This document shows positions 1 through 20,168 of a stretch of 64,000 nucleotides of DNA, piece after piece. The notes under the pieces were generated by a model, which searched no databases, was not told where the DNA came from, and was given only the letters and a program-made list of their open reading frames with translations. Source of the DNA: Octopus vulgaris (taxonomy: Eukaryota); NCBI GenBank assembly GCA_951406725.2, contig OX597820.1, forward strand, positions 74,090,001 through 74,154,000, given 5' to 3'. Both the position numbers and the translations under genes were made by a program. Position 1 is the first letter of the stretch; each line of letters begins with the position of its first letter.

Positions 1-329
1 GAAGAACTCAATCTCTCTTTAAACTGGCTCGAAAATATCTCAAAAGGTCTGTTTTCTTCGACCATCTCTCTGCTGAGGATTAATCTCAGCTTTAACAAGT
101 TGTCTGCGATTTACAACGATAGTTTTTTAGGCTTAACTCACATGAGGGAACTGAATTTAGCCAATAATTCTATAAGACATCTTGATGCCAGGGCCTTCAG
201 CGTAGGAAAGTTGAACCAGCTTTCTCAACTGACATGGTTGAATCTCCAGTTTAACCAAATCGGAGAGATTTTACCTCAAGTCTTCCATGAGTCACCACAT
301 TTGAAATTTCTCAACATCGGACACAACAG
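1..329 (+). CDS. LRR-pseudoprotease gene, LRR exon A (5' part lies outside the window)
   Basis: Open frame from base 1 (EELNLSLNWLENISKGLFSST...LNLANNSIRHL...LNLQFNQIGEI...LNIGHN) with LxxLxLxxN repeats. Donor AG|GTTAGT at 330, phase 2, matches the next exon. Confidence 0.92.
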
Positions 330-2683
330 GTTAGTGACTATTTAGAGTAGTGCTTCGCAAGCTTTTCCTGTCAACGTCCCAAAACTTTATTGGCTCCCAA
401 ACGACCATTTCCACATTTTCATGTCTATTCTTTTCAAAACTGTTGCTTAGTCTAGCAGTGTGCATGACTTGACAGATAATAACTCTTTCTACTATAGGTA
501 CAAGGTCTGAAATTTTGTGGAAGAGGACTAATGGACCCCGAAAGGATAAAAAACAAAGTGGACCTGGAGGAAGTTTGAACTCGGAACGTAAAAATCAGGA
601 AAATGCCGTTAAGCATTTTGTCTACAGTGCTAACGATTCCGTCAGCTCGCCACTTTTTTTTCAAGAGAAAACAATTATATTATTAAGTTCAAAACTGAAT
701 CAATTTTTTTAAATATATAATTTCTATTGTTTACTTAATCAAACAATTATCTTTACAATAAGTGAATCATACAACATAATCCTAAAATAACTCAGTAAGA
801 AATAATATTTCGAAACTTCGTGAGTTTTCTATTCCGCAAATGAGCTAAAAGTGTCGGAACATCTACAGATTTTCTTAGGTTTCAAATATATTCATTCTTA
901 TTTGTCCTTGCTCTAAATTCCTTTTACGTTGTTGAAACCAAAGTCAAAAAAAGGAAATATTTAGCAGCCGGAAGATTGCAATTCTAATTTACATTCGAAT
1001 CAGTCTTTCTTCCGGTATAAACAATGTTTTTTAACACTTCATAGTCAATCGAATGTAATTTGTTGAGTTAGGTGAAGGTGGTGTACAGGGTGATAACTTA
1101 TAGATGAAGTAGAAACCATTGTTAGAGAAGAAACAAAGATAGTGAACGGACATTATTCAGTAACGGATAATTATTGGAAGAATGGTGAATTGGAAAAGGT
1201 TGTCGGTCAAGCAATATAAAAATCAATATCACCATCGTATTTCGACGTGGTTGAATATCCAACCCCAACCAGTCGGGGTGAATAGTATGATGTACTATTC
1301 ATCCTTTCAATCGGTGAATGCAAAAACGTGTCTCGCGAGGCCGCTGTTCGGGAGATTTTCCTGAGTCACCATCTCACCTTATAACTTCCTTTCCTGGATT
1401 CTGTGGTGCATATATTCCCTTTCCCCACCGGACTGGATGGCCGACCATTGTCGGATTACTCATTTTTGATAGCTGAGAGGACTGGAGCAATCTGAAATGT
1501 AGTGTTTTGCTCAAAAACACAACGCATCACCCAATCCAGGAATCGAAACCGCAACCTTGCAATCATGAGTCGAACACCCTAACCACTAAGCCACAATAAC
1601 AATTTTGGTAAAGACGGTAGAATGTTTGACCAATTAACACCAATGTCGATTTGGAGAAGATGTTAGCAATGTTATTTAAAAAATATATCGTGTTATTGAA
1701 GCCACAATAAATGGTAGCATGACTGTACATGGCAGTAAGCTGGTAACGTTGTTAGCGTGTAGAACAAAATGCTTAGCGGCATTTCTTCCAGCTCTTTACG
1801 TTCTGAGTTCAAATCCTGTCGAGGTCAACTTTATCTTTCATCGCTTTGGGGTTGACAGAATATAGTACTAACCAAGTACTGGGGTCGAGGCAATCGATTT
1901 GTCCTCTTTGACTCGAAAATGGCTGACATTGAACCCTGCAACAGACTGGCATCATAACCACCAGTAATGTTATGACTTTGATCACTTATATGCCACAGAA
2001 ACCGAGCAACCGTCCTTCTAAGCCTTCGAGCTTAGAAAAAAGTAGCTGTGTGTATGAGTGTGTGCGTGTATGCGTGTGTGTACATGTGCGTGAAACAGTG
2101 AGTATATGTGTGTGTGTACATAGGTGTGTGTGAACCGTGTGAGACAGTGCTTTGTCTAATACTCATGTCTATGGAAACGGTCTTCTGCATTCAGAGAATT
2201 TTGAGATACTTAATGGTTCCTGTAAAATGTTTACCTGATTCTACTGCGAGGGCAAGAGTCTTTTACAATATTCAAGGGTGACCAATGGTTGGCTGAAACT
2301 ATGTGAAAACTCGTCGTATGTGTGTGTGTATATGTGTGTGTGTTTGTGTGTGTGTCTTTTTGTTTGTGTTTGTCCTTTTCTCTCCACTTGACAAACTGGC
2401 GTTGGTTTTAGTCTCCGTGGCTTAGTGACTCGGCAAAAGAATTCAATAGAATAAGTGCCAGATTTAGAAGAAAAAAAGGAAAATGTCTGGGGTCAATTTG
2501 TTCAACGAAACCGATCAATGCGGTGCTCCAGCATAGCTGCCATCCAATGACTGAAATAGATACAAAATATTACTGTCTCACTTCGCTCTCAACATTAATG
2601 AATTTCTCATAGCATTTTGTCATTTTGCTCTCTGAGTATAAATCCTCTCGAGGTCGTGTCCGGGCAGATTCAATCGTCTAAAT

Positions 2684-2965
2684 CAGTGGTTCCCAAAGTG
2701 GGCAGTACTTCCCCCTTGGTGCACAGATCCAGGGGGCGTTGATGAAAAGTGGGATGATAATGGGGTGGCCATAATGGGGTGACAGATGTAAACGTAAATA
2801 TATTAATAATTTAATTAGGTTTAAGTTGTATTTGTGAAATAGAATTGTTTTGAATTTGCTGCAGAGAGTGGTCTATATTTGTGGTGGAGGTGAGGGTGAG
2901 GGGGCACTAGGAATGTGGTCTGGGTGTCAAGGGGGCGGCAACCTGAAAAATTTTGGGAACCACTG
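2684..2965. mobile_element. hAT-type MITE
   Basis: TIRs CAGTGGTTCCCAAA...TTTGGGAACCACTG with 8-bp TSD GTCTAAAT/GTCTACAT. A related copy lies at 54027-54214. Confidence 0.85.
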
Positions 2966-2973
2966 GTCTACAT

Positions 2974-17260: not shown

Positions 17261-17811
17261 ACACACACACACACACACACACACACATGATGTATATAAG
17301 TATGTATGCATGTATGTATACACACATATTGTGAAATGTAATTTTCGGTCATATCCTTCTTAAATTATGTATATAAAATGTGTTAGATTGCCGCGAAGGC
17401 AAGATATACTAATTACTGCCCTATTTAGTTAAGTAGCAAAAACTAAGAATACTCACATACATACATATATACATGCATGCATACATATATATATATATAT
17501 ATATATATATATATATATATATATATGTATATAAACAGAGAGAGAGAGAGGGAGAGAGAGAGAGAGCGAGAGAGAGAGAGAGAGAGAGAGAGAGAAGCAC
17601 AATATTAGGTCAAGTACCATACATAAATATATAAAAGCAAAGTAGACAGATATTCATTAACACACACACACGCCCACGTGCACACACACGCACCTGCACA
17701 CACGCACACGTGCACGCCCGCACAGCCACGTGTTCACTCATACATATATAGTAATATGTATGCGTACATTAATGTATATGTGTGTGTGCATATATATATA
17801 TAGAGAGAGAG

Positions 17812-18222
17812 AGGCGCAGGAGTGGCTGTGTGGTATGTAGCTTGCTTACCAACCACTTGGTTCTGGGTTCAGTCCCGCTATGTTGCACCTTGAGCAAGTG
17901 TCTTCTACTATAGCCTCGAGTGGATTTGGTAGACGGAAACTGAAAGAAGCTCGTCGTATATATATATATATATATATATATATATATATATATATGTGTG
18001 TGTGTGTGTGTGTGTGTGTATGTTTGTGTGTCTGTGTTTGTCCCCCCAGCATCGCTTGACAACTGATGCTGGTGTGTTTACGTCCCCGTCACTTAGCGGT
18101 TCAGCAAGAGAGACAGACAGAATAAGGACTAGGCTAACAAAGAATAAGTCATGGGGTCGATTTGCTCGACTAAAGGCGGTGCTCCAGCATGGCCGCCGTC
18201 AAATAACTGAAACCAATAAAAG
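17812..18222 (+). mobile_element. SINE family A
   Basis: Family A head, central (TA)n(TG)n, and tail. Confidence 0.88.
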
Positions 18223-19486
18223 AAAAGAAAAAAGAAAATACGTATGTATGTATGTATGTATGTATGTATATGTATGCGTACATACATCTATATTACTTAT
18301 ATTATAACATTCGTTACTGTTGGCCAAATGTTCCGTTCTAGGATGCTTATCAAAAGCAAATATATTCGCAGACATGTCTATTTGCACGCATACATACGGA
18401 TGTAAATACACACAAACACACACACATACACACACACACACACACACACACACACACACACACACACACACACACATCAACTAACCCCGTGTGACGAGAA
18501 ATGAGGTGGACCCAATTATCGTTGGGACCAGAGGACTGCATTTATTAAACGTTACAGCTATAAAGACTTACAATCAGGACTTTAAGTTTTGTATTAACAA
18601 TTCGATTATCGAATTGTGGATACAGAAATTTAAATTCCTGAATCTAAGCCTCCATGATTGTATCATTTAATACATACATACATACATACATACATACATA
18701 CATACATACATACATACATACATACATAGGCGCAGGAGTGGCTGTGTGGTAAGTAGCTTGCTTCCCAACCACATGGTCCCGGGTTCAGTCCCACTGCATG
18801 GCACCTTCGGCAAATGTCTTCTACTATAGCTCAATGTGTTCCGTTCATCAGATCAACTGGAACCCTTGTTGTAACCGACGGAGTGCCACGACAACGATAT
18901 GTATATATATATGTGCATATACACATATATATATATGTGTGTGTGTGTGTGTATATGTTTGTGTGTGCACATGCGTAAGTGTATGTCACGATGAATCTCC
19001 CCGAGAATTACGTAAGAGGTATACGTGTCTGTGGAGTGCTCAGTCACTCGTACCTAATTTCACGATCTGGCAGTTCCGTCGATCAGGTCAACTGGAACCC
19101 TCGTCATCATAACCGACTAAGTGCCACAACGACGGTACTATTAAATTAGACATGACCTGGGCCAACTTCGGCCGAAACTTATCTAAGTAATCTAAGCATT
19201 TTCCCACTTTTGACAGCATCGTATCGTGTATGATTCGTAAACTTTTATCATTTCCATTCTATACTTTCACAGTTCAGTCATTAGACGTGTTTCAGTCATT
19301 AGACTGCAGCCATGCTGAGGCACAGCCTTGAATTTTAGTCGAATGAATTGACCCTTGTGCTTACTTTCGTGTAATAATTATTTGTACGCTTTTGTTTACG
19401 ACAGAATTATTTAATTAGCTGATTAGCTACTTCCTTATTTTATCTCTTATATATTTACTTAAGTATTTATTGATTTATCTTTACAG

Positions 19487-20168
19487 GAAATTCAAGGCTG
19501 AGCTGTTCCACTTCCATGCGACGGTGATCGATTCCTTTGGCCAAATTGTTTGTAATGGACACTCATTATCGCCCACTTGGATCCTTACAACACTCTCTTG
19601 CATTCGCTCATTAATGACCACATCTAGTGACAACACGGGCAGTTTCCCTATAAATACACAAGTCAGAATTGGGCACGGTCACCCGAGAGAGATAAACAAG
19701 GTTATTGTCCAACCAGGCAATGGTTCACTGGCTTTACTTCGAGTTCACAGTAATTCGTCTTTCCAGGATGAACATCGTATTGGTGACGTGTGTCTGATGA
19801 ATAAAACCGACTTCTCCATCGTTACAAAAACACTCAAGACCGGAGCTTTTACTGCGAATGTCGATGGTCGTAAGTCAGGCTCGAAACTGAAAGCAGTCCG
19901 TGCCAAATACAGCCCTGCATTTTGTTCAAGACAACCGAATAAAATATGTGTCCGAATGCAGAATCGAACCCGTCAGAAAAGGGGTTTACTTACCTTAGGA
20001 TCACCATTATATTTTGGGAGTTCATCTAATTGGCGTTTAGTAGGAATCGGATCAGGTTTTAAATCAACGTCAAACACAGAAATATCCCCGACGCCATCTT
20101 TGAACATAGTCGATTTCTATCCTTTATGGAATATTTTAGAATGGTTAAATAGAACTATTTCGACTTGA
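19487..20168 (+). CDS. LRR-pseudoprotease gene, terminal exon D (catalytically dead trypsin/S1-like domain)
   Basis: Acceptor TTTACAG ends 19486 and is phase-2 compatible. S1-like motifs: CNGHSLSPTWILTTLSC (cf. CGGSLI...WVLTAAHC), SLALLRV (cf. DIALL), DVCL, KICV, TLGSPL (cf. GDSGGPL), WRLVGIGS, ILEWLNRTI. Ends in TGA. Confidence 0.87.

Follow-up and report, generated by a model that had tools for sequence, protein, structure and literature searches.

A leucine-rich repeat protein of Octopus vulgaris that ends in a catalytically dead trypsin-fold domain, and its relatives in molluscs

What use has an animal for a protease-like domain that appears unable to cut, when it is spliced to a long array of leucine-rich repeats (LRRs)? 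The question is raised by a gene in a 64,000-nt stretch of Octopus vulgaris DNA, contig OX597820.1 (G000:C7:74090001-74154000, within a 2.8-Gb genome assembly), which we call the window. An initial annotation, made from the letters of the window, had read there an LRR ectodomain fused to a catalytically dead trypsin-fold domain, and had proposed a secreted protein that couples Toll-like recognition to a protease cascade. We find that the gene belongs to an LRR-pseudoprotease family that is real, ancient and apparently undescribed, and that its most favored function is a different one.

Four window exons (1-329, 5676-6294, 15471-15859 and 19487-20168) have GT/AG ends and phases 2, 0, 2, and join into 2,019 nt that encode 672 amino acids plus a stop; this reproduces the four in-frame exons of the initial annotation. 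The C-terminal 672 amino acids of a database protein of 1,135 amino acids (P0007) are the same protein, with 0 differences. Once P0007 is mapped upstream, the full gene has five coding exons (499, 1,219, 619, 389 and 682 nt) and a complete coding sequence of 3,408 nt, whose translation is exactly P0007. The protein begins with a hydrophobic N-terminus, followed by an LRRNT cap split by a long insertion (Cys32, 36, 38 and 154), 21 motif-matched LRRs and an LRRCT cap, which is divided by an intron as had been noticed; after the LRRCT come a 103-residue polar linker and Cys894, then Arg909, whose codon holds the last intron, and finally the protease-like domain (residues 910-1135). The features are as follows, in window coordinates except for exon 1.

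G000:C7:74041838-74042336, about 48 kb before the window: coding exon 1, with the predicted signal peptide and the first half of the split LRRNT.
1..329, plus strand: 3' part of coding exon 2, with LRRs 11-15 (residues 464-573 of 1,135); the exon begins 890 nt before the window.
5676..6294, plus strand: coding exon 3, with LRRs 16-21 and three of the four LRRCT cysteines (743, 745, 769).
15471..15859, plus strand: coding exon 4, with the last LRRCT cysteine (790), the 103-residue polar linker, the tether Cys894 and the first two bases of Arg909.
15813..15815, plus strand: codon of the tether Cys894, predicted partner of Cys1011 in a putative disulfide of the C1-C122 type.
19487..20168, plus strand: coding exon 5, with the whole catalytically dead chymotrypsin-fold domain (residues 910-1135) and the stop, intronless.
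19596..19598, plus strand: Ser946 at the His57 position, by alignment.
19725..19727, plus strand: Ser989 at the Asp102 position, by alignment.
19995..19997, plus strand: Leu1079 at the Ser195 position, by alignment; Thr1078 is at the Asp194 position.
20169..20436, plus strand: 3' untranslated region, reached (to 20436) by spliced contigs of two of four runs; AATAAA at 20274 and 20301.

The fusion depends on the joint 15859/19487 (3,627 nt skipped, GT..AG), predicted in the initial annotation and found spliced in contigs of all four runs, from four studies (these runs are labelled RNA by guess only, none being on record as RNA). One run gives a 4,020-letter contig in which about 2,680 letters precede exon 4, a length that would fit exons 1-3 (2,337 coding bases) together with a 5' untranslated region. 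The two upstream joints rest on the database model P0007 and on cuttlefish contigs: those of 3.9-4.7 kb carry an entire frame of 1,128 amino acids (one sequence, 79 contigs), and the octopus and cuttlefish proteins share 54% identity. A shorter isoform is also on record (P0009; 1,042 amino acids), which ends within the last exon in a short divergent tail (window 19487-19868 region); no joint matching this tail was found among the four runs examined.

Pfam recognizes no trypsin domain in the octopus protein and its last exon matches no Pfam family; taken alone, this exon has a weak plasminogen match (E 4e-4). Other comparisons agree on the fold that the initial annotation had assigned. The ten best ESM Atlas matches of the last exon that have a family are trypsin clusters (top 0.97), and with a profile of 16 family sequences the matches to thrombin, factor XI and chymotrypsin span the full domain (E about 1e-11). 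AlphaFold, given the domain alone with the 16-sequence alignment, returns a model with a predicted local distance difference test score (pLDDT) of 84.8 and a predicted template modelling score (pTM) of 0.86; all 50 Foldseek matches listed for this model are S1 proteases (best E 2e-11, TM 0.70). The top row in VIA-align is protein Z (Z 19.8, root-mean-square deviation 2.6, 195 aligned, 16% identity), in a tie with several active proteases that lie within 1 Z unit. Modelling thus confirms the chymotrypsin two-barrel as the predicted fold of the last exon.

The catalytic residues are gone, as the initial annotation had it: Ser946, Ser989 and Leu1079 stand at the positions of His57, Asp102 and Ser195. 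The activation switch is lost too, with Lys at the Ile/Val16 position after Arg909 and Thr1078 at position 194. Because the triad, Ile16 and Asp194 are all missing, the octopus domain is predicted to be unable to cut; by its fold and lost triad it is an S1A serine protease homologue. Across the family His57 is found in none of the 21 domains that cover the site, Asp102 in seven of 22 and Ser195 in two of 22 (both scallops, both without His57); seven of the 22 relatives have an Asp in the 195 column that might really be Asp194, Ser195 having been deleted, and the alignment cannot tell. The structural cysteines are better kept. The octopus protein has those expected by the initial annotation (931/947, 1011, 1055/1063 and, in the linker, Cys894), and C122, C168 and C182 are invariant across the 22 family domains (MAFFT set the family invariant cysteine one column off the outgroup C122; HMMER aligns the two). 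C42 and C58 are both present in 11 domains and both absent in 10 (the other being a fragment without this region), a joint loss that a real disulfide would be expected to show. Bivalve-type members (P0036, P0041, P0034, P0035, P0037, P0040, P0043, P0053 and P0056) have a C-terminal extension with two extra cysteines after the dead domain, and all of them except P0056 have lost the C42-C58 pair.

Identity between octopus and Sepia is 55% for the dead domain and 55% for the LRRs, and two octopus records differ at four of 226 positions in the dead domain versus 11 of 98 in the linker, a pattern that argues for strong constraint. A predicted complex of the dead domain with its own LRR solenoid scored 0.02 (alignments were not used), which is no evidence either way.

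All seven full-length proteins examined have 21 LRRs by motif match, and in each of them a 29-residue step follows repeat 13. Two animal metagenome contigs with short introns (L012 and L013) each have a single long exon that encodes 19 repeats and shows this step as well. Identity at variable concave versus convex positions is 45 versus 36%, 51 versus 44%, 39 versus 33% and 26 versus 20% in four groups (12-15% in a shifted-register control), and the two octopus records differ at four of 120 concave positions. An aromatic patch (Trp and Phe/Tyr at repeats 14-15) is kept in coleoids, the chiton, P0052, L012 and L013. In a search with the family LRR profile, the best solved-structure sequence match is the acid-labile subunit (ALS), with Toll-like receptors (TLRs) and LGR4 scoring close behind.

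Secretion, which the initial annotation had proposed, is predicted from upstream exon 1: a hydrophobic stretch precedes the LRRNT in all seven full-length proteins (19-mer maxima 1.4-2.5, by hydrophobicity scan). Beyond the N-terminus no 19-mer of the octopus protein exceeds 1.4, there is no TIR match and the stop follows directly after the protease-like domain, so the claim that no transmembrane or TIR segment is present also stands. No clip domain was found in a Pfam scan of P0003-P0005 or of the full-length relatives, and outside the protease domain the cysteines are the tether, one within an LRR and those of the LRR caps. Across full-length sequences the linker is anywhere between 13 and 444 amino acids long, whereas the tether cysteine lies 24-26 residues ahead of the first strand of the protease-like domain in nine out of nine; a variable linker with a fixed tether suggests that the two heads act independently.

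Exon structure offers a hint of how the fusion arose. The dead domain is a single exon in octopus and likewise in relatives, as judged by open frames. The 146 trypsin matches in the octopus assembly (G000) are mostly exon-sized pieces, many of which begin at profile position 1, so the intron in the Arg909 codon would be at the usual activation-site intron place of trypsin genes; Cys894 is 15 residues ahead of that intron. The fusion could plausibly have begun when an LRR gene took in a protease domain that was retroposed or stripped of its introns.

How widespread is the family? Word-index searches returned coleoid relatives only (3 proteins each time), and the wider family comes from a HMMER profile search of 1.84 billion protein cluster representatives. 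Of its 32 hits 18 were taken as family members; nine domain-only fragments in the family are assigned by the dead domain alone. The other 14 hits were rejected, 12 of them as multi-domain proteases, one as an Ig-repeat protein and one, P0059, as a weak trypsin match. Members or their cluster mates come from Sepia (Acanthosepion) pharaonis, the chiton Liolophura sinensis (XP_064601440), five Mytilus species (one record partial), Pecten maximus (XP_033751636), Pinctada imbricata (KAK3101272) and a second scallop record, XP_021351702, which we take to be Mizuhopecten yessoensis. The LRR plus trypsin-like architecture that the initial annotation had suggested looking for in molluscs is found in orthologues from cuttlefish, chiton, mussels, scallops and pearl oyster; the dead domain is linked to LRRs in cuttlefish, chiton and bivalves and also in P0052, L012 and L013. 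On these sequences the family evidently occurs in three mollusc classes (cephalopods, chitons and bivalves). No named gastropod was among the profile-search hits, and no search was aimed at gastropods.

A wider lophotrochozoan range is possible, as suggested by sequences without a species name (P0052, P0044, L012/L013). In both L012 and L013 there are exons for the LRRs, the LRRCT and the dead domain, and a linker rich in Thr that contains a cysteine; in L012 the orthologue is followed on the same strand by an aminopeptidase-N-like gene (11780-16470; by eye from frames). In the domain tree named molluscs group at 85/91 support, with P0052, P0044 and L012/L013 outside, and the family is taken as monophyletic from its branch support relative to six distant outgroups. 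The tree of the LRRs is star-like. In G000 the octopus domain finds only this locus, as does the Mytilus domain (E 2e-13), which indicates a single copy. The other long single-frame trypsin match in G000, on C4 (L017:4107-5240, minus strand), was rejected as a paralogue: the His motif of its active site looks intact, and the 40 kb around it hold no LRR match. This gene of 377 amino acids has an N-terminal hydrophobic stretch and a trypsin-like domain and resembles PRSS23/35-type proteases.

The initial annotation had expected gene predictors to miss the architecture, and they do: besides the Pfam result, the Sepia pharaonis gene is recorded in two pieces, an octopus record (P0008) stops at the end of the linker exon, and bivalve orthologues are called artichoke-like or IGFALS-like (other database names are LRRCT domain-containing and uncharacterised). 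In the openly accessible literature we found no account of an LRR plus dead trypsin family. In one paper an orthologue accession is cited, by its IGFALS name only, as an insulin-pathway protein (PMC13229695), so that a gene invisible to routine annotation is being read as an insulin-pathway subunit through a database name.

Several known systems share parts of this design. Protein Z, haptoglobin, HGF and azurocidin have a chymotrypsin fold without a working triad and serve in binding, as the octopus domain may; haptoglobin and HGF also resemble it in their two-chain layout (a tether cysteine and an Arg before the domain), and azurocidin in its high isoelectric point (pI). The accessory part differs, however, being a 21-repeat LRR horseshoe in octopus and Gla/EGF, CCP or kringle domains in protein Z, haptoglobin and HGF, and the octopus protein, unlike these S1A homologues, also lacks Ile16 and Asp194. 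Arthropod clip-domain homologues (SPCLIP1, CLIPA8, masquerade, scarface) are secreted invertebrate proteins with a dead S1A domain, as is predicted for the octopus protein, and masquerade and scarface have roles in adhesion and morphogenesis. These usually change just Ser195, to Gly, whereas the octopus family has no clip domain and has lost His57 (21 out of 21) and Ser195 (20 out of 22). IGFALS is secreted, as is predicted for the octopus family, and shares with it about 20 typical LRRs between cysteine caps; Drosophila Artichoke is the same type of secreted protein. Both are LRR-only: the split LRRNT with long insertions, the linker and a folded S1A domain in the same spliced frame are additions of the octopus family. 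TLRs share the long typical-LRR solenoid with LRRNT and LRRCT, but the octopus protein has no transmembrane segment and no TIR and is not expanded, and against diversifying LRR immune receptors it shows one copy, a fixed 21 repeats in two exons and a better conserved concave face. The protein is not a clip homologue, a TLR or an LRR-only ALS/Artichoke protein, each of which fails a defining feature.

The same domain pair occurs in arthropods. An ESM Atlas cluster of 50 members (representative 637 amino acids; Trypsin 100%, LRR_8 96%) is the best feature match (0.93) of residues 690-1135 and has the same two domain families in one chain, and a second Atlas cluster joins LRRs to a bacterial-type trypsin-like domain; the domain pair is therefore not unique to the octopus family. 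The arthropod representative, compared by domain labels only, is much shorter than the octopus protein, and none of the 32 profile-search hits is an LRR plus trypsin protein of its size; the arthropod proteins are likely an independent fusion. Relative to the initial annotation, what is added is that the family is at least pan-molluscan and that LRR plus trypsin also occurs in arthropods.

What could such a protein do? The reading that we prefer, and to which we give about an even chance, is a secreted non-enzymatic adaptor that would tie a fixed, animal-made partner bound by the LRRs to the polyanionic extracellular matrix or to cell surfaces. One conserved protein would be the ligand of the concave face, whose aromatic patch (repeats 14-15) lies next to a conserved insertion of 5 residues. 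For the dead domain, strongly basic as it is, the docking sites would be polyanions (heparan-sulphate-like sugars, acidic matrix proteins), or else a protease or inhibitor. A trypsin-like enzyme might cut after Arg909, which stands where the activation site would be, and the head would then be held by a Cys894-Cys1011 bond. In haptoglobin and HGF the cleaved head stays attached by such a bond. The cut would yield no protease, since none of Ile16, Asp194, His57 and Ser195 is left. The gene is single-copy, its repeat number does not vary and its concave face is conserved, which points to a fixed endogenous partner and fits it better than Toll-like immune sensing, and a developmental or tissue-building role seems more likely than microbe recognition. 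Oyster immune receptors, TLRs included, are in contrast massively expanded (PMC4346834). Of the secreted recognition/scaffold protein first proposed, the fusion, the dead triad and the predicted secretion hold up; Toll-like recognition coupled to a protease cascade loses its place as the leading role (single copy, 21 repeats in register, conserved concave face), with no immune link found and none excluded.

The charge of the dead domain speaks for the adaptor reading: pI is at least 9 in 21 out of 22 family domains (median net charge +18), as compared with one out of 50 control S1 domains (median net charge -5). Several observations weigh against this reading. The control domains come from 12 multi-domain proteases and are not independent; the LRR region is basic too (pI 8.7-9.8), so the charge is not peculiar to the dead domain. 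Concave faces of LRR proteins are often the better conserved side, and the concave/convex comparison excludes hypervariability yet names no role. The aromatic patch is absent from the three named bivalves compared, Arg909, being at an exon junction, may be favored by the splice consensus, and single copy was assessed in one genome. No partner, tissue, stage or phenotype was found, and the proposed mechanism draws on conservation patterns only. Conserved single-copy immune cofactors do exist, SPCLIP1 being one (PMC3764210). Two short peptides went unmatched in the partial supplement of an octopus skin-mucus proteome (PMC10138644), which is not evidence of absence.

An immune scaffold in haemolymph, in which LRIM1/APL1C-like LRRs and an SPCLIP1-like homologue are fused and recruit a complement-like or melanisation cascade to microbes, is a possibility to which we give a minor share of belief. 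One complement-like pathway of Anopheles includes both the LRR proteins LRIM1 and APL1C and SPCLIP1, which is non-catalytic (PMC3764210). Secretion is predicted for the octopus protein, and microbial surfaces are a possible target of its basic head. Binding to a host protein, as in LRIM1/APL1C-type proteins, would lead to a conserved concave face as well. But the family has no clip domain and no expansion, with a constant repeat number over three mollusc classes, its concave face has no sign of fast change, and the openly accessible literature offers no immune link (PMC13229695, the one paper that cites an orthologue accession, uses the IGFALS name only). We consider it rather unlikely that the protein is instead a secreted ligand after cleavage, like the HGF beta chain, or an LRR carrier of a hormone or growth-factor complex (ALS- or GARP-like) targeted by its head. 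The ALS match speaks for this, as do the Arg and tether cysteine kept at the activation-site position and a single-copy, slow-changing pattern that suits a signalling protein; the ALS match is generic, however, with TLRs and LGR4 so close behind. In HGF-type activation a new N-terminus inserts against Asp194, and both are lost in the octopus protein. A bolder reading, improbable in our view, is an unnamed signalling or matrix-organising protein, at least as old as molluscs and shared with other lophotrochozoans: ahead of the divergence of the mollusc classes an LRR gene would have acquired a trypsin domain without introns, this domain would have died at once, and the secreted product would be a cleavable two-chain ligand with its own conserved receptor, so far masked by IGFALS-like names. 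That the protease-like exon is a non-functional remnant, or another gene's, with an LRR-only true product, is largely refuted and strikes us as very improbable. P0008 ends at the linker exon and P0009 inside the last exon, and AlphaFold on the full-length protein (8 sequences) folded only the LRRs, leaving residues 739-1135 with pLDDT under 50; yet the joint is spliced in four out of four runs, the domain alone folds well, and its conservation matches that of the LRRs, to which it is joined in cuttlefish, chiton, bivalves, P0052, L012 and L013.

A dead domain that has been kept as strictly as the LRRs from a time before cephalopods, chitons and bivalves diverged must have a function. LRRs now join the domains known to pair with S1A pseudoproteases, and naming the family provides one single-copy target, present both in cephalopod models and in species used in aquaculture, from which a lineage-wide extracellular pathway could be traced.

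The rest of the window contains repeats. Fragmented non-LTR retrotransposon frames lie at 30848-33307, with RVT_1 at 31720-32151, zf-RVT at 32711-33304 and a related C-terminal non-LTR piece at 30848-31375. A 3.64-kb near-perfect palindrome (44156-47793; 99.7% identity, centre near 45975) could reflect either a genuine inverted duplication or an error of assembly. It carries a minus-strand frame of 517 amino acids and a broken plus-strand mirror of it, without a Pfam match; by eye we take the frame to be that of a Penelope-type retroelement.

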